From Verrucomicrobiota bacterium (GTDB lineage: Bacteria; Verrucomicrobiota; Kiritimatiellia; CAIQIC01; JAGNIJ01), in the NCBI GenBank assembly GCA_018823105.1, contig JAHJJH010000282.1, positions 1-50,258 on the forward strand: 50,258 nt of DNA, in the 5' to 3' direction. The translations under genes were made by a program, and so were the position numbers. Of the stretch, positions 26,574-46,739 are shown piece by piece. The notes beneath the pieces were generated by a model. The model ran no database searches and had not been told where the DNA came from. It saw only the letters and a list, made by a program, of their open reading frames with translations. Within the stretch, counting starts at the first letter, position 1; the number at the start of each line of letters is the position of its first letter.

Positions 26574-27716
26574 ATGCAACGTCACGTCTCCATACAAGTC
26601 TCCGGCCGCGTGGACCTGCCCCTGGATGGGCCGCCGGTGCTGGCCTGCGGCGCGGATCTCAAGAGCGTCTTCTGCGTCACGCGCGGCCGCCAGGCGATCC
26701 TTTCGCCGCCCATCGGCGACCTTTCGGAATACGCCTCCTGCCAATTCTACCGTGAGGCCGTGGACGAGCTGCTGCGTCGGCTGCAGATTCAGCCGGCGAT
26801 CGTCGCGCACGACCTGCACCCGGATTACGAATCCACCCGGTTCGCGAAGACCTTCCCCGCCGGGCGCAAGATCGCCGTGCAACATCATCACGCGCACGTC
26901 GCCGCCTGCATGGCGGAGCACGGCCTCGCCGGACCGGTGATCGGCGTCGCGCTGGACGGATCGGGCTACGGGCCGGACGGCACGGTCTGGGGCGGCGAGT
27001 TCCTGGTGGCGGATTACGCCGGATACCGGCGCGTGGGACACTTCAAGCCGTATCGCCTGCCCGGCGGCGAAGGCGCGATCCGGCATCCGCCGCGCATGGC
27101 CTTGAGTTGGCTGGCCGAGGAATGCGGAGAGCGTGCGGATGCATTGGGCGCGCAATGGTTGCCGGCAATTCCCCCGGATCACCGGAAAACGCTGTTGGGC
27201 CTGATCGCTTCCGGCGCGCATTCGCCCTGGACCTCCAGCGCCGGCCGTCTCTTCGACGCGGTCTCCGCGCTGTTGGGATTGTGCGACAAAATCTCGCACG
27301 AGGGCCAGGCGGCGATGCGCTTGCAGGCCGCCGCCGACCGGCGCGAGAGCGAAGCCCTGCCGGTTGAACTGGAGGATCGGGCCGGCGTCGTGGTCCTGTC
27401 TTTCGGGCCCGCCCTGCGCGCGCTGCTGGAGCAACGCGAGGCGGGAGTCGGAATCCCGATCCTGGCGGCGCGATTTCATCGGGCCGTGGCCGCGGCCGTG
27501 GCCGCGGTCTGCGGACGCTTGCGCGACCGGGAAGGCCTGGCCCGAGTCGTGCTCTCGGGCGGGGTTTTCCAAAACGATCTGCTGTTGGATTGGCTGACGG
27601 ACGCTTTGTCTGCCGGCGGTTTTGAAGTATATTCCCATCACCAGGTGTCGCCGACCGACGCGGGCCTGGCCCTGGGCCAGGCCGCCGTGGCCCTGGCGGC
27701 GGCTACTGAACACTGA
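26574..27716 (+). CDS. hypF: HypF-like carbamoyltransferase, Kae1-like C-terminal domain only
   Basis: 380 aa. PVLACGADLKSVFC, HHHAHVAACMAEHG, GVALDGSGYGPDGTVWGGEF and VLSGGVFQN match the C-terminal half of HypF. The frame is closed by a TGA at 26499-26501, so no acylphosphatase, Zn-finger or YrdC-like domain can be encoded upstream in frame. Confidence 0.8.
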   Translation: MQRHVSIQVSGRVDLPLDGPPVLACGADLKSVFCVTRGRQAILSPPIGDLSEYASCQFYREAVDELLRRLQIQPAIVAHDLHPDYESTRFAKTFPAGRKIAVQHHHAHVAACMAEHGLAGPVIGVALDGSGYGPDGTVWGGEFLVADYAGYRRVGHFKPYRLPGGEGAIRHPPRMALSWLAEECGERADALGAQWLPAIPPDHRKTLLGLIASGAHSPWTSSAGRLFDAVSALLGLCDKISHEGQAAMRLQAAADRRESEALPVELEDRAGVVVLSFGPALRALLEQREAGVGIPILAARFHRAVAAAVAAVCGRLRDREGLARVVLSGGVFQNDLLLDWLTDALSAGGFEVYSHHQVSPTDAGLALGQAAVALAAATEH

Positions 27717-27735
27717 ACACCGAACACTGAAAATG
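27708..27735. repeat. tandem heptamer repeat (GAACACY)x3-4 spanning the hypF stop
   Basis: gaacact gaacacc gaacact gaaaatg. The hypF TGA (27714-27716) lies inside the repeat. Confidence 0.8.
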
Positions 27736-28022: not shown

Positions 28023-28468
28023 CCGCAGAGAACGCGGAGAGCGCAGAGGCAATGGAAAAGGAAAAACTAAACCGAATTACGGAAGGCATTATCGGTGCAG
28101 CTATGGAGGTGCACCGTGCCCTGGGGCCCGGTCTTTTGGAGTCGGCGTATGAAGCGTGTTTGGCTTTTGAGCTGGCCCAACGCGGCCTGAAGGTGGAACA
28201 ACAGAAACCCCCGCCCGTGGTCTATCGGGAGGTTAAGCTCGATTGTGGATACCGGCTGGACCTGTTCGTCGAAGAGAAGGTCATTGTCGAGATCAAGGTC
28301 GTTGAGCAACTGATGCCGATTCATCAGGCCCAATTGCTCTCTTACTTGAGACTTTCCGGTTGCAAAGTGGGCTTGCTCATCAACTTCAATGTCAAGGTTC
28401 TGAAGGACGGCATCTGCCGATTAGTAAATGACTTTCCGGATTCTCTGCGATCTCTGCGATCTCTGCGG
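28023..28468 (+). mobile_element. GxxExxY gene cassette bounded by 26-bp imperfect terminal inverted repeats
   Basis: The 5' repeat is ccgcagagaacgcggagagcgcagag (28023-28048). The 3' repeat is ctctgcgatctctgcgatctctgcgg (28443-28468), whose reverse complement matches the 5' repeat at 23 of 26 positions. Each arm is itself a 9-nt tandem triplet. The cassette fills almost the whole hypC-hypD gap. Confidence 0.65.
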
Positions 28469-28471
28469 TAA
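28052..28471 (+). CDS. GxxExxY protein (PD-(D/E)XK-like superfamily)
   Basis: 139 aa. The family signature is GPGLLESAYEACLAFEL (G-x-x-E-x-x-Y), with the downstream motifs DLFVEEKVIVEIK and QLLSYL. The C-terminal SLRSLRSLR is encoded by the 3' inverted repeat. Confidence 0.85.
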   Translation: MEKEKLNRITEGIIGAAMEVHRALGPGLLESAYEACLAFELAQRGLKVEQQKPPPVVYREVKLDCGYRLDLFVEEKVIVEIKVVEQLMPIHQAQLLSYLRLSGCKVGLLINFNVKVLKDGICRLVNDFPDSLRSLRSLR

Positions 28472-28486
28472 CGAACTGGCCCTGGC

Positions 28487-29545
28487 ATGAATAAGGAAAT
28501 TCAGGCCATTCGCGAACTCGCCGGCGGCCTGGGCCGGACCGTGCGGCTCATGGAGGTCTGCGGCACGCACACGATGGCCGCCTTCCGGTCGGGCCTGCGC
28601 TCGCTGCTTCCCGCGAACGTGCAGCTTCTCTCCGGGCCGGGCTGTCCGGTGTGCGTCACGCCCATTGACTACGTGGACCAGGCCGTCGCGCTGGCCCAAC
28701 GGCCCGATACCGTGGTGGCGACGTTCGGTGATATGATCCGGGTGCCGGGCACGGAAGCGTCGCTGGAGCAGGCGCGCGCCCGGGGCGCGCAGGTGCGGGT
28801 GGTCTATTCCCCGCTCGATGCGTTAGCCGAGGCGCGGGCGAATCCCGGGACAGCGGTTGTATTCCTGGGTGTTGGATTCGAGACCACCGCGCCGACGACG
28901 GCGTGGGCGCTGCGCGAGGCGGCCCGGGACACGCCCAATTTTTATGTTTTGTGTGGACACAAGACCATGCCGCAGGCGATGGCCGCGCTGCTGGACGGCG
29001 GCGAGGTTTGCGTGGACGGGTTCCTCTGTCCGGGCCACGTCAGTGTCATCATCGGCTCAAAGCCGTACGAATTCATTCCCCAAAAGTACGGCTTGCCCTG
29101 CGTCGTCGCGGGATTCGAGGGTGAAGACATGGCTGCGGCGATCCGCATGGCGCTGAAGCAGTTGGCGGAAGGCCGCGCGGAGGTGGAGGTGCAGTACACC
29201 CGCAGCGTCACCCGCGAGGGCAATGCGAAAGCACAGGCCGCGATTCGCGAGGTATTCGAAGACAGCGACGCGGCTTGGCGCGGGCTGGGCACCCTCCCGG
29301 GCAGCGGATTGCGAATCCGCGGGGAGTTTTCGGCTCACGATGCCGAACGGCTGCTGGCCGGCCTGGAGATTCCGCCGGCCCGGGAGCCGGCCGCTTGCCG
29401 CTGCGGCGACGTGCTGCGCGGGGCCTGCGCGCCGCCGGAATGCCCGCTGTTCGGGACGCTTTGCACCCCGGGCCATCCGGTCGGCGCCTGCATGGTCTCG
29501 AGCGAGGGCACCTGCGCGGCGTATTACCAATTTAGAGAAAAGTAA
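28487..29545 (+). CDS. hypD: hydrogenase maturation protein HypD
   Basis: 352 aa. Motifs are MEVCGTHT, GPGCPVCVTP, GFETTAP and the C-terminal Cys motifs (CRCG...C...C). Confidence 0.9.
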   Translation: MNKEIQAIRELAGGLGRTVRLMEVCGTHTMAAFRSGLRSLLPANVQLLSGPGCPVCVTPIDYVDQAVALAQRPDTVVATFGDMIRVPGTEASLEQARARGAQVRVVYSPLDALAEARANPGTAVVFLGVGFETTAPTTAWALREAARDTPNFYVLCGHKTMPQAMAALLDGGEVCVDGFLCPGHVSVIIGSKPYEFIPQKYGLPCVVAGFEGEDMAAAIRMALKQLAEGRAEVEVQYTRSVTREGNAKAQAAIREVFEDSDAAWRGLGTLPGSGLRIRGEFSAHDAERLLAGLEIPPAREPAACRCGDVLRGACAPPECPLFGTLCTPGHPVGACMVSSEGTCAAYYQFREK

Positions 29546-29555
29546 CACCAAAAAG

Positions 29556-29697
29556 TTTCCAATGTTTGGAAAAAGGCCCGCCGATTTTTCCAATCATTGG
29601 AAAAAAAGACGGAGAATTTTCCAAACATTGGAAAAAAAGCGCGCAATTTTTCCAAACATTGGAAAAATGGGTGGGTGAACTTTCCAAACATTGGAAA
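29556..29697. repeat. array of five 17-bp palindromes TTTCCAA-NNN-TTGGAAA with 31-32 bp phasing
   Basis: Copies lie at 29556-29572 (tgt centre), 29587-29603 (tca centre), and 29618-29634, 29649-29665 and 29681-29697 (aca centre). Start-to-start spacing is 31, 31, 31 and 32 bp. The 14-15 bp spacers are unrelated to each other. Confidence 0.9.
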
Positions 29698-29803
29698 ACC
29701 AGGCCCCGAACCCGCTTCGCAAGCTCTCTTCGAAGTTGGACCTGCGCCGGGGCAAGCGAGAACGACGACGAGGACGAGAACGAGAAGGAGAGGGATTGTA
29801 TTT

Positions 29804-29820
29804 CCTGAACCCTGAACCCT
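29804..29820. repeat. tandem heptamer (CCTGAAC)x2, preceded by gggattgtatttcc
   Basis: The sequence is cctgaaccctgaaccct, 13 nt upstream of the hypE ATG. The same motif family occurs at 34835-34858. Confidence 0.75.
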
Positions 29821-29832
29821 CTTCCAACCTAT

Positions 29833-30852
29833 ATGAACGAACCAACACCTGAATTGGTGCTGCTGTCCCACGGGGGCGGGGGCGGGCGCACGAAGCAGTT
29901 GCTCCACGACATCATTCTCCCGGCCCTCGGTTATGACGGGAGCGAGAAACTGGACGACGCCGCGTGCCTGGACGTGCCCGAGCGCGACCTGGCGATCACG
30001 ACGGACTCGTACGTCGTCCGGCCGCTTTTTTTCCCGGGCGGCGACATCGGGCGGCTCGCGGTCTCCGGCACGGTCAATGACCTGGCGATGCAGGGCGCCG
30101 AGCCGCGGGTGCTGACCCTGGGATTGATCCTCGAGGAGGGCTTGGAACTGGCCGCGCTGCAACGCGCCATGCAGTCCGTCGGCGAGACCGCGCGGGAGGC
30201 GGGGGTACGGATCGTGACCGGCGACACGAAGGTCATCGAGCGGCGGGCCGGCGACGGGCTGTTCATCAATACTGCCGGGTTGGGCGTGCGGTACCGCGGG
30301 GCCGATACGCACGTGGCCAATGCCCGGCCGGGCGACGTGGTGCTCGTCAGCGGGACGCTGGGCGATCACGGTATCGCCGTCATGAGCGCGCGCGAGGCCT
30401 GGGGCCTGGAGACGCGTCTGCCAAGCGATGTCGCCCCGTTATGGGACATGGTCAAATCCTTGTTGGATGCCGTCCCGGGCGTGCGCTGCCTGCGCGATCC
30501 CACGCGCGGCGGCCTGGCCGCGGCCCTGAACGACATCGCGGAGGCCTCGGGGGTGGGCGTGCGAATCCGGGAAGAGGCGCTGCCGGTGCGGGAGGAAGTC
30601 CGCGGCGCCTGCGACCTGCTGGGGCTGGATCCGCTGAACGTGGCGAACGAAGGCAAGGCGGTGGTGGTGTGCGCGGCGGCGGACGCCGCGCGCGCGCTGG
30701 AGACGCTGCGGGCACATCCGCTGGGCCGGTCGGCCGCGGTGATCGGCGAGGTGACGCCGGCGCCGGGGGGCCGGGTGCTGATGCGTACGCGGCTGGGCGG
30801 CGAACGGATGGTGAATGTGCCCAGTGGCGAGGATCTGCCGAGAATTTGCTGA
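29833..30852 (+). CDS. hypE: hydrogenase maturation protein HypE
   Basis: 339 aa with a PurM-like fold. The DAA/DSYVV motifs are present, and the diagnostic C-terminal PRIC ends on the carbamoyl-acceptor Cys. Confidence 0.9.
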   Translation: MNEPTPELVLLSHGGGGGRTKQLLHDIILPALGYDGSEKLDDAACLDVPERDLAITTDSYVVRPLFFPGGDIGRLAVSGTVNDLAMQGAEPRVLTLGLILEEGLELAALQRAMQSVGETAREAGVRIVTGDTKVIERRAGDGLFINTAGLGVRYRGADTHVANARPGDVVLVSGTLGDHGIAVMSAREAWGLETRLPSDVAPLWDMVKSLLDAVPGVRCLRDPTRGGLAAALNDIAEASGVGVRIREEALPVREEVRGACDLLGLDPLNVANEGKAVVVCAAADAARALETLRAHPLGRSAAVIGEVTPAPGGRVLMRTRLGGERMVNVPSGEDLPRIC

Positions 30853-34809: not shown

Positions 34810-34858
34810 GTGAATAGTGAATAGTATGGGATTTCCCTGAACCCCGAACCCTGAAACC
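34810..34858. repeat. two adjacent tandem heptamer repeats: (GTGAATA)x2 then (CCYGAAC)x3
   Basis: gtgaatagtgaatagta (34810-34826), then tgggattt, then ccctgaaccccgaaccctgaaacc (34835-34858). They lie in the 80-nt gap between asnS and the TIGR00725 gene. Confidence 0.8.
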
Positions 34859-34860
34859 TT

Positions 34861-44888: not shown

Positions 44889-45572
44889 ATGGCCTGTATT
44901 CGCCCAAGTGTAAAGTGGATGCTCCTGCTGGCATGCTGCGCGGTGGGGCTGACCGCCTTGCCCTCGCACGGCGACATCATCAGCCTGATCGCCTATGTCA
45001 GCAATCCCATCTACGAAGACGACGGGGTGACCCCTCTGGCTCAAGGCTCCATCGTGATGATCTTCGGCAGCGCCGACAACCAAAACGACGGCATGTCCGA
45101 ATGGTCCCCCGGCCCGCCTCCTATTTACAACCCGTACTCGGTGCAGGGCGACGACATCTACCTGGGTACCGTGTATATCGGGCAGCCGTATTATTATGAC
45201 GAGGAAGACAATCCGGTGCTTGGCACTTTCAGGTCCGATATGGTGATTACCTGGAATGATGAAGAGGTGGAGATCAATTACCTGTACATTCGTTTCTTTA
45301 ACACCCCTTACTTCCCGCCGGGCGTACCGGTCGAGTGGGGCACCTCCACCGTGTTCGAGGCCACCGTGGATTTCGGTGTGGTCAACCAGGATCTCATCGG
45401 TAATTACTTGGCGAACCATACGAATGTTTTTATGTCGATCCCGGAACCCAGCACTGTGCATCTGATGCTGTTATTCGGGGGCTTGGCGGCCGGCATGGGT
45501 GCCTGTATGAAGAAAAGCCAAGGGACCAAGCAGGCCGGCCAACAGCCGCCGAAGGAGGCGTGCGCGTCATGA
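44889..45572 (+). CDS. PEP-CTERM sorting-domain surface protein
   Basis: 227 aa with a signal peptide (WMLLLACCAVGLTALPSHG). The C-terminal IPEPSTVHLMLLFGGLAAGMGACMKK gives a PEP motif, a TM helix and a basic tail. Confidence 0.8.
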   Translation: MACIRPSVKWMLLLACCAVGLTALPSHGDIISLIAYVSNPIYEDDGVTPLAQGSIVMIFGSADNQNDGMSEWSPGPPPIYNPYSVQGDDIYLGTVYIGQPYYYDEEDNPVLGTFRSDMVITWNDEEVEINYLYIRFFNTPYFPPGVPVEWGTSTVFEATVDFGVVNQDLIGNYLANHTNVFMSIPEPSTVHLMLLFGGLAAGMGACMKKSQGTKQAGQQPPKEACAS

Positions 45573-46513
45573 AAAAAAACCAGGCTTTTGTGACCACGTG
45601 GCGTTGGAAAAAAGGACTCGCCTCGCTGGTCGTGTTGGGCGTGTTACTCTGGGGCGGGCCGGTGCGGGGCGATACGCCCATGAGTATCGGGACGACGAAT
45701 ACCACGGTGGACGAGTTCGGCGTTCCGCTGGTGGGCCGCGATGGTGACCCCGCCACCAATTGTGACCTCGTCGTAATCTACTGGGCCAGCAATAGCATGA
45801 TCTATTTTCCCGATTATTCAGGGAATCCGGACCCCCGCAACCCCCAGCTAGAGCCACCCAGTAACGGCGTCTGGTATATTGGAAGCCTGTGCGGACCGCT
45901 CGCACCGTCAGGGACCTTCTCGGCTTGTTTGGCTGGAACGAATCGCCCAACTGTGGACAGCGTACTCTTCGTGCGCGTGTTCAATGCCCCTACCCTGGCC
46001 GCGGCCTCCTATTTCGGCGATTCGCAGGTGTTTACGGTCAATGGAAGCACCTATGAAGGAAAAGAAGCTGTCGTGCTTAACATTGATAAAACCCGGTATC
46101 CCTTCGATTCCCGGGATAACGATGATGATGGCCTGAAAAACTCCCTGGAGAAAAGCCTGGGCACGAATCCCGATGATCCCCACAGCGATACCGATACCGT
46201 CAATGACTGGGAGGAATGGGTGGCCGGCACCGACGGAACCGATCCGAACTCCTACTTCATCCTGGCCCGGATCCGGCAGGGCGAGGGCGACGAGGCGGTC
46301 GTGGGCTGGGATTCCCTGGCGGGCAGGAACTACAAGGTATGGTACACGGATGACCCGCTGGATGCCACGGATCCCACACCCGAGTGGATAGTGGTCAGCG
46401 GTCCGGACTGGATTACCGCCGATGGAGATGTCATGGAGATCGGTATTCCCGCCGGGCTGTCGATCGGCCGCGGGCACTTCCGGATTCAAGTGGACCCGCC
46501 ACCGCAGCCGTAA
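45569..46513 (+). CDS. secreted protein with an N-terminal domain paralogous to 44889-45572 and TSP3-like Asp-rich calcium-binding repeats
   Basis: 314 aa from the ATG at 45569, with GAAGGAGG 10 nt upstream and an ATGA overlap with the upstream stop. Shared blocks with the neighbour are LVVIYWAS/IVMIFGSA, WYIGS/VYIGQ, GTFS/GTFR and LFVRVFNAP/LYIRFFNTP. A DNDDDGLKNSLE..GTNPDDPHSDTD...GTDGTDP region follows. Confidence 0.6.
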   Translation: MKKNQAFVTTWRWKKGLASLVVLGVLLWGGPVRGDTPMSIGTTNTTVDEFGVPLVGRDGDPATNCDLVVIYWASNSMIYFPDYSGNPDPRNPQLEPPSNGVWYIGSLCGPLAPSGTFSACLAGTNRPTVDSVLFVRVFNAPTLAAASYFGDSQVFTVNGSTYEGKEAVVLNIDKTRYPFDSRDNDDDGLKNSLEKSLGTNPDDPHSDTDTVNDWEEWVAGTDGTDPNSYFILARIRQGEGDEAVVGWDSLAGRNYKVWYTDDPLDATDPTPEWIVVSGPDWITADGDVMEIGIPAGLSIGRGHFRIQVDPPPQP

Positions 46514-46526
46514 CCGCCGCCGGGAT

Positions 46527-46568
46527 TTTCCAGTGTTTGGAAGACCGGGGGTAATAAGTTTCCAATCC
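46527..46568. repeat. degenerate two-unit copy of the TTTCCAA...TTGGAAA repeat family
   Basis: tttccagtgtttggaa (46527-46542) matches unit 1 of the 29556 array at 15 of 17 positions. A half-site tttccaatc begins at 46559, again 32 bp later. The sequence gggatttt precedes it, as at 34828. Confidence 0.6.
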
Positions 46569-46600: not shown

Positions 46601-46739
46601 TGTCCCAGAAGTTGTTGTGCACACAGTACTGTCATCCCGAGCGAAGTGAGGGATCTCCAACTCATTCGGCGACATGGAGATCCCTCGCTGCGCTCGGGAT
46701 GACAAACATCCTTTTCTGTGCATCATTATTTCTGGGACA
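46601..46739. repeat. 139-bp nested inverted-repeat element (MITE/REP-like) between convergent genes
   Basis: The outer 10-bp perfect inverted repeat is tgtcccagaa (46601-46610) with ttctgggaca (46730-46739). The inner 29-nt arms are gtcatcccgagcgaagtgagggatctcca (46631-46659) and tggagatccctcgctgcgctcgggatgac (46675-46703), with 2 mismatches. Confidence 0.85.

Follow-up and report, generated by a model that had tools for sequence, protein, structure and literature searches.

Interspersed palindromic repeats as such are a known kind of genomic feature, and several described systems come close to the one reported here. Uptake signal sequences (USS) of Pasteurellaceae and DNA uptake sequences (DUS) of Neisseriaceae exist in very many perfect copies with lineage dialects, are taken up preferentially by a competence machinery, have indel-free copies in coding sequence, and show no link to the function of neighboring genes. 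The palindromic elements of Rickettsia are 100–150 bp long, with copies alike over their whole length, and they insert with a gain in length. CRISPR arrays have repeats of ca. 23–55 bp, unique spacers of ca. 21–72 bp, a leader, and usually cas genes. The sopC locus of the F plasmid repeats a 43-bp unit in tandem, and every unit includes a palindrome bound by SopB. Repetitive extragenic palindromic (REP) sequences have G.T pairs in their stems, a sign of an RNA-level function, and are associated with a RAYT (Y1 transposase) in the genome. They are imperfect palindromes of 20–40 bp, one end of which bears an unpaired GTAG or CGTC tag, and are defined by a positional bias, being preferentially located between co-directional or convergent genes (PMC3733652). 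Lrp-type regulators recognize clustered 15-bp semi-palindromes; two to six of them form a cluster with spacers of 15–17 or 27–29 bp, their centers share one helix face at distances of two or three turns, and the regulator oligomer wraps the DNA (PMC2995911, PMC10201364). Here we analyzed a stretch of 50,258 nucleotides from a Verrucomicrobiota bacterium of the class Kiritimatiellia (contig JAHJJH010000282.1 of assembly GCA_018823105.1), hereafter referred to as the window, in which a first-pass annotation made from the sequence alone had noted an array of five palindromes between hypD and hypE. This array is a local member of a repeat family that is spread through genomes across Kiritimatiellia. 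The family is apparently undescribed so far: a full-text literature search returned no description of the Kiritimatiellia palindrome family or its motif, and an Rfam E-value scan of 29300–30000 gave only sub-threshold, miRNA-like chance matches due to the hairpins and no family. The first-pass annotation, which did not recognize the motif as a described one, was right in this respect.

The window contains five perfect matches to TTTCCAANNNTTGGAAA, at the starts and with the distances that had been reported. Unit 1 (TTTCCAATGTTTGGAAA) occupies 29556..29572, unit 2 (TTTCCAATCATTGGAAA) 29587..29603, and units 3, 4, and 5 (each TTTCCAAACATTGGAAA) 29618..29634, 29649..29665, and 29681..29697, respectively; none is assigned to a strand, and the unit-to-unit distances are 31, 31, 31, and 32 bp. 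When up to two mismatches to TTTCCAANNNTTGGAAA are allowed, the window has six matches versus 0.05 expected, and none of 100 shuffles reaches six. Tandem Repeats Finder describes the array with a period of 31 and 3.6 copies. The array occupies the first part of the strandless 287-bp hypD–hypE spacer (29546..29832), beginning 11 bp past the hypD stop codon and followed by ca. 130 bp in which (CGAGAA)n forms a purine-rich run and CCTGAAC heptads occur. Pfam confirms both neighbors, hypD upstream (28487..29545, + strand; PF01924, E 3.6e-144) and the gene for a HypE-type protein downstream (hypE, 29833..30852, + strand; AIRS and AIRS_C). G+C content over the array is 0.40–0.49, compared with 0.6–0.78 in the flanking DNA of the window, and each of the five units has A/T runs on both sides, as had been noted. 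The palindromes had been described as conserved and their spacers as unrelated; the conservation stands, but the unrelatedness does so only in part, as spacers 2 and 3 share 62% identity, chiefly at their A/T ends. The center triplet is ACA/TGT in four of the five units and TCA in one. With just two stop codons across its six frames, the array is indeed the origin of the spurious FPMFGK, FQTLEK, and SNHWKK peptides. Four independent assemblies contain the identical array of five units, which is therefore no assembly artefact. The degenerate copy with a 32-bp phase that had been seen farther along is a decayed doublet of the same family (46527..46566, no strand). It consists of a unit with two mismatches, TTTCCAGTGTTTGGAAG at 46527–46543, and the half unit TTTCCAAT 32 bp on, at 46559; it lies in a convergent gap and begins 14 bp past the stop codon of the open reading frame 45560–46513.

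We searched one genome from each of 185,579 species for pairs of the 15-bp core TTCCAA-N3-TTGGAA with 6–36 bp between the two copies. At least 120 blocks with a paired or arrayed motif, from ca. 45 genome assemblies, were found among the matches listed. Uniqueness of the motif to the hypD–hypE locus had been named beforehand as an outcome that would speak against the initial finding; it does not apply, as phased arrays are widespread. The named taxa among the matches listed are nearly all Kiritimatiellia, Tichowtungia, Pontiella, or older labels of metagenome-assembled genomes (MAGs) from the PVC superphylum (Lentisphaerae, Verrucomicrobia, and Spartobacteria), and several records are labeled just “uncultured bacterium”; this taxon range is a minimum, which the order of the database could bias. 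All genomes are MAGs, and the loci were studied as 8-kb blocks. The closest HypD homologs of the window in a protein search come from sources named as Kiritimatiellia or Verrucomicrobiota MAGs as well, and the window very probably shares that origin. As a negative control, 64 hypD loci on metagenome contigs (295 kb, HypD identity of at most 67%, no taxon assigned) contain no pairs or arrays of units. In the metagenome of the window itself, contigs at equal depth (16–19x) align to the array but bear different spacers, and the window organism therefore has more arrays. The units number from tens to many hundreds per genome. The estimated array density is ca. one per 4 kb in the MAG bin-1020 and ca. 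one per 5 kb in another MAG; it is far lower in many other genomes including that of the window, down to well under one per 25 kb.

Arrays of the same type with 31–32-bp spacing were also found on some viral or proviral contigs of IMG/VR (L192, L196/L200, L204, L189, and L201; four units in L200), which may be phages or prophages of Kiritimatiellia. Three further IMG/VR contigs (L191, L193, and L194) carry a different TTCCAA-N3-TTGGAA pair that has A/T centers and a 28-bp spacing, is conserved across the three contigs, and stands outside the phased family. Arrays repeat every 22 bp in two loci (L036 and L043) of CACXQL01, which is labeled Prevotellaceae and has a G+C content of 0.44–0.45; unless this MAG is mislabeled, the family extends beyond the PVC superphylum.

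Each unit is a palindrome of 15–21 bp, (T)TTCCAA-N-S-N-TTGGAA(A), with A/T runs as flanks. Perfect units dominate, accounting for 393 of the 503 matches found at up to one mismatch, and have aaaTTTTCCAA-t-S-a-TTGGAAAAttt as their consensus. In 99% of these 393 units the center is occupied by C or G, and the positions beside it tend to self-complementarity (T-S-A). The symmetry is two-fold right to the center and through the flanks: when units are aligned by the direction of transcription, each tested flank position shows mirror symmetry (all p > 0.1), and the center base is unbiased (117 C versus 92 G). The center triplet is characteristic of the genome, being TCA/TGA in 87 of the 88 units of bin-1020 and mostly GCC/GGC in LaPlata bin-260.

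Units are seldom solitary. When units with up to three mismatches are counted, there are 169 arrays versus 21 singletons; the commonest array has two units and the largest eight. The scan admitted any center-to-center distance from 21 to 51 bp, and of the 273 neighbor spacings within this range, 272 are 21–22, 30–33, or 41–43 bp (p = 1.6e-144). Without the 31–32-bp class, 39 of 40 spacings still fit (p = 9e-28). By the three class means, one turn measures 10.8, 10.5, and 10.5 bp. A few units are farther from their neighbors, and distances of 52, 62, 64, 73, and 95 bp agree with the helical series, while five spacings (18, 46, 66, 112, and 114 bp) are outside it. The classes can be mixed inside a single array, as in the 22-30-22-31-31 array of L022. 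The spacing of two, three, or four helical turns therefore keeps the units on one face of the double helix, and the approximately three turns recognized earlier at hypD–hypE are part of this family-wide whole-turn rule. Static DNA curvature caused by the A- and T-tracts was considered and set aside, since by a hand estimate the tracts of one unit are ca. 1.6 turns apart and should largely cancel.

Within one genome, the spacers of separate arrays bear essentially no relation to each other (a 7-mer is shared by 2.5% of pairs versus 0.9% between genomes), and a spacer-sharing test for a master element was negative except in genome CAYYYX01. Neighboring spacers are near-identical in L044 and L089 (80–88% identity), which therefore points to growth by tandem duplication there. 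The layout of conserved palindromic repeats and unique spacers is reminiscent of CRISPR, but the array is not of that kind; as already stated in the first-pass annotation, the repeats and spacers are too short (15–21 bp and 10–17 bp, respectively; spacers are 16–17 bp between 15-bp cores). Moreover, the arrays are many and tiny, with a modal size of two units, and neither a leader nor cas genes were seen in the window or the fetched loci. Some arrays of the 42–43-bp (and 66-bp) class, located at 1848–1928 and 4506–4593 of L010, 6781–7025 of L024, and 987–1125 of L055, have GC-rich mini-hairpins in their spacers (CCGGCT-G-AGCCGG, GCAGGCTGAGCCTGC).

Some arrays are inside genes. About 30 lie within long open reading frames; some of these frames are start-codon artefacts, but at least ten arrays are in bona fide genes. 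The doublet-bearing aroB of L114 has no insertion relative to solved AroB structures. In the aspartase-like gene of L208, the doublet encodes FQTLE..IPKIGR, which aligns without a gap to FEAKGREFATVIKIGRT of PDB entry 3oce, and native residues are retained in the doublet spacer. For the doublet-bearing trpF, sufD, and namZ, the number of residues in the Pfam match approximates that of profile positions (trpF has at most ca. nine extra), and an insertion of 16 residues would therefore hardly fit, if at all. Further doublets are located in the helical domain of mnmE, a linker of nadE, and a linker between kinase and FGE domains. In all of these genes, the spacing is 31–32 bp; neither length is divisible by three, and translation therefore passes through the two units in different frames, one giving FQxLE and the other xPxIGK or SxxWK. 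This excludes an origin by in-frame duplication and means that the units were written onto native sequence by substitutions. To judge from these sequences, selection or molecular drive would have to act on the DNA motif and its spacing.

The history of the hypD–hypE array can be followed in four relatives (L205–L208), which were found by protein search and contig look-ups, and in which the synteny of hypC, hypD, hypE, and a rubrerythrin-like gene is conserved. L206, L207, and L208, whose HypD proteins are 72, 70, and 69% identical to that of the window, have no motif at this junction; their hypD–hypE gap is 8 bp in L206 and 13 bp in L208, and the two genes overlap in L207. By contrast, the closest relative L205 (84% HypD identity) has a 119-bp gap with three units, the first containing one mismatch, compared with the 287-bp gap and five units of the window. 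On this comparison, the tight hypD–hypE junction is the ancestral state. The first unit is 13 bp past the hypD stop codon in L205 and 11 bp past it in the window, and the three L205 units align with window units 1–3. Units 4 and 5 and ca. 110 bp of other sequence are additions of the window. The palindrome arms are identical at 35 of 36 positions between the two loci, compared with ca. 28% identity in the spacer cores and 65.6% at the 4-fold sites of hypD; a hand calculation gives a probability of ca. 5e-6 for such arm identity under neutral change. The arms are under evolutionary constraint. The comparison thus indicates that the array arose by insertion and changes size by whole units, with the arms remaining constant while the intervening DNA drifts. 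Tandem amplification, which had been put forward as one origin of the array, agrees with the increase from three to five units between relatives but does not explain the family.

We then inspected the genomic context of the arrays. Gene calls in the fetched loci were made with a home-made codon log-odds caller with the arrays masked, and were checked on the window and by Pfam. By these calls, 99, 25, and 21 arrays are in tandem, divergent, and convergent gaps, respectively, versus 250, 68, and 42 background gaps of at least 60 bp, and no context is preferred. Several convergent gaps consist of the array and nothing else. Divergent cases verified by Pfam include the gap between ruvB and a PPDK-like gene, one beside cysS, and one beside a GH2 gene. 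In tandem gaps, the array is at a median of ca. 23 bp from the upstream stop codon and ca. 75 bp from the next start, and arrays often start within ca. 20 bp of a stop codon. In TGA/TCA-centered units, the palindrome center can serve as the stop codon of the upstream gene; at 2787–2789 of L009, an open reading frame apparently ends inside the first unit. All-against-all BLAST of 274 array-flanking proteins revealed no recurrent family, and no common function links the genes beside the arrays. This rules the motif out as a regulon operator, let alone a hyp-specific one, and we rejected the idea of a regulon on this ground. At the hypD–hypE locus, neither a sigma-70 promoter nor an intrinsic terminator pattern was detected, and inspection by eye found no sigma-54 promoter (TGGCAC-N5-TTGC) downstream of the array. 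A reading of TTGGAA as a −35 box and TCCAAT as a −10 box was discarded, as the latter lacks the key A at position 2. The window-array sequence had no match in RNA runs and matched DNA metagenomes only.

On balance, and with somewhat better than even chances, we take the units to be phased sites for a putative dimeric protein and the family to be a chromosome-level signal, not a means of gene-specific control. The sequences show the family with its phasing, symmetry, distribution, and constraint, whereas the binding of a protein, its nature, and its effect are inferred. In this reading, a dimeric protein of two-fold symmetry would act at the DNA level by binding to each unit, and phased units would let several dimers occupy one helix face, cooperatively or as one oligomer. 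The signal shows no link to hyp genes, promoters, or terminators, and could be architectural, as for a nucleoid protein, or serve a DNA transaction. At hypD–hypE, the array was inserted into the tight junction and then changed in unit number with constant arms. Same-face sites for a dimeric DNA-binding protein were among the alternatives offered in the first-pass annotation, and are the best supported of them given the whole-turn spacings and the two-fold symmetry of units and flanks. As in the Lrp/AsnC case, where the boxes measure 13–15 bp, the Kiritimatiellia units are palindromic boxes clustered on one helix face; their own spacings are 21–22, 30–33, or 41–43 bp. The likeness is offered only as a possible way of working, and the two differ in several respects. 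Lrp boxes are degenerate while the Kiritimatiellia units are near-perfect, and the latter number tens to many hundreds per genome and are also present in convergent gaps and genes, not in promoters alone, a location that argues against simple Lrp-type operators. The tandem palindromes also resemble sopC, where a whole-turn period permits same-face loading of a dimeric protein; however, a centromere is one locus per replicon, whereas the Kiritimatiellia arrays are many loci per chromosome. A wider version of the same reading, which we hold only tentatively and consider somewhat doubtful, is that of a class-wide Kiritimatiellia signal system, in which a putative dimeric protein would recognize TTCCAA-NSN-TTGGAA and need at least two same-face sites, and in which selection or drive would write doublets into essential genes.

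Several observations weigh against the favored reading. The center of the Kiritimatiellia box is C/G, while typical Lrp boxes have an A/T-rich center contacted through the minor groove. The near-uniformity of the center triplet within a genome and its change between genomes would require one protein co-evolving with hundreds of sites, whereas copying of a master element would explain both easily. The range of densities, from ca. one array per 4 kb to well under one per 25 kb, is odd for an essential architectural signal. The hypD–hypE array itself is a derived insertion into a formerly tight junction, and the context counts rest on home-made gene calls. Finally, the doublets of L010 (CAYYYX01) are in-frame insertions in murF and murD and behave as mobile elements: murF has 22 extra residues compared with its ortholog, murD has ca. 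47 compared with solved MurD structures, and the two insertions have a common spacer with its own GC-rich mini-hairpin. Both modes thus exist, doublets by substitution and doublets by insertion.

Most of these points would be expected of a selfish REP/BIME- or miniature inverted-repeat transposable element (MITE)-like palindrome (BIME, bacterial interspersed mosaic element), which spreads in each genome, is merely tolerated without a host function, and owes its conservation to recent copying or homogenization. The derived hypD–hypE insertion with its changed unit number, the tandemly duplicated spacers of L044 and L089, the murF and murD insertions, the homogeneous triplets, and the variable density all suit such an element, and REPs inside genes are already known (PMC3733652). 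The REP, BIME, and REPIN families of Enterobacteria, Pseudomonas, and Stenotrophomonas are likewise short, high-copy, lineage-specific palindromes that are mostly intergenic, single, paired, or arrayed, and sometimes within genes (PMC3733652). We nevertheless regard this explanation as unlikely, if still deserving attention. The spacers are unrelated between arrays of one genome, which leaves no master copy longer than the 15–21-bp unit, and copying does not account for the helical-turn quantization over ca. 45 genomes. Several in-gene doublets changed no length and retained native spacer residues, and the arms are conserved across a divergence that randomized the spacers. The position matrix of the 393 perfect units has just A/T runs outside the 15-bp core, with neither GTAG nor CGTC as a tag; the palindrome shows no imperfection and is rich in A/T although the genome is rich in G+C; arrays do not shun divergent gaps; and the small sample of imperfect units shows no G.U signature. 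The in-frame insertions of L010 are shared with Rickettsia palindromic elements and MITEs, but the Kiritimatiellia copies have just the 15–21-bp unit in common, and most in-gene doublets lack an insertion. Less probable again is an uptake-signal-like motif comparable to USS and DUS, a special case of protein binding in which the motif accumulates by molecular drive and a DNA-transaction machine, e.g., a competence receptor, prefers phased doublets. It would account for the substitutional writing of doublets onto native coding sequence without indels, for the genome-specific triplet “dialects”, for the absence of orientation bias, for densities up to ca. one per 4–5 kb in some genomes, and for the over-representation and dominance of perfect copies (393/503). 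It does not explain palindromy, pairing, and long arrays, and five to eight units in a row would bring no obvious benefit to uptake. The uptake sequences known so far are single and asymmetric, whereas the Kiritimatiellia motif is a palindrome that needs a phased partner (21 singletons versus 169 arrays), and it is far more confined to intergenic DNA than USS and DUS. The genome of the window has very few arrays, some viral contigs have arrays, and we know of no evidence of competence in Kiritimatiellia.

An RNA-level explanation, in which a BIME/REP-type hairpin array stabilizes or terminates hypD/hypE transcripts, had also been proposed, and is very improbable. Each unit can form the predicted hairpin with a 7-bp stem and a 3-nt loop (folding gives stems of 7–9 bp and loops of 3 nt), the 287-nt hypD–hypE spacer folds better than shuffles (z = −6.5), and many arrays start close to a stop codon. 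However, the hairpins reach just −4.9 to −6.7 kcal/mol, the self-complementary T-S-A center would be pointless for a loop, and the spacing tracks the DNA helical repeat. Imperfect phased units do not prefer G.U (8 G.U, 7 A.C, and 13 other mismatches, a small sample), arrays are found between divergent genes and inside genes, and neither a terminator pattern nor an Rfam family match was obtained. The lack of positional and orientation bias, the lack of a G.U excess, the weakness of the hairpins, and the self-complementary center flanks therefore argue against an RNA or terminator role and for duplex-DNA recognition by a two-fold symmetric protein. Arrays in essential genes must also be transcribed through, which makes a strong roadblock or terminator function unlikely. 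The remaining explanation, an array of local operators through which a regulator specific to hydrogenase or hyp genes would control hypE, is close to refuted. In its favor, the array is upstream of hypE in a hyp cluster, and phased palindromes are typical of operators and enhancer-binding-protein sites. Against it, the motif is beside unrelated genes in ca. 45 genomes among the matches listed, convergent gaps can be made of the array alone, relatives with the same hyp synteny (L206–L208) lack the motif at this junction, and the decayed copy in the window is unrelated to hyp. The long array of L039 was rejected as a second hypE-linked case, its downstream gene being a purM-like AIRS gene and not a hypE ortholog (21% local identity). 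The combination of a perfect A/T-rich palindrome in G+C-rich genomes, obligate whole-turn pairing, no orientation bias, and substitutional writing into coding sequence fits none of the families tested.

If the wider, class-wide version of the favored reading is true, the arrays would represent a new sequence-specific system of nucleoid organization or DNA transaction, similar in scope to USS/DUS or REP and distinct in mechanism. REP, USS/DUS, and CRISPR each proved to mark a specific molecular machine, and the signal carried by a whole class of the PVC superphylum that has received little study is very clean, with perfect palindromes, whole-turn spacing, and array densities of up to ca. one per 4 kb. 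Owing to its simplicity, the motif lends itself to a DNA pull-down of the putative reader protein, and the genome-specific center triplets offer a built-in test of co-evolution. Doublets in essential genes indicate that DNA-level pressure can override coding preferences. On the practical side, the spurious reading frames, near-free of stops in six frames, can mislead gene callers on Kiritimatiellia MAGs, and the arrays may serve as a taxonomic marker for binning.

Other features of the window are located near the two array sites. The purine-rich hexamer run (CGAGAA)n between the array and hypE comprises 5.8 copies at 29757–29791 and is missing from L205. Heptads (CTGAACC/CTGAACA)n are found at 27705–27731, 29804–29820, and 34835–34859, in gaps by gene starts (five matches versus 0.97 expected), and L205 has CCGAACA repeats at the corresponding place immediately before hypE. 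Between hypC and hypD, the window has a gene of the PD-(D/E)XK_3 family (28052–28471, + strand; Pfam E 2e-43). In L205–L208, hypC overlaps hypD directly, and this gene is therefore a separate insertion into the hyp operon of the window lineage. The hypF gene (26574–27716, + strand) encodes only the C-terminal Kae1-like half, with 380 residues compared with 758–775 in the relatives; the acylphosphatase, zinc-finger, and YrdC domains present in the relatives were not found upstream of 26574, a region in which 26169 is the end of an MFS transporter gene. The window may have a hyp cluster in decay. In the convergent gap beside the decayed doublet, 46601–46739 is a nested inverted-repeat element with inner arms of 30 nt, 93% complementary (TGTCATCCCGAGCGAAGTGAGGGATCTCCA), and outer arms of 23 nt, which looks like a different MITE-like repeat.

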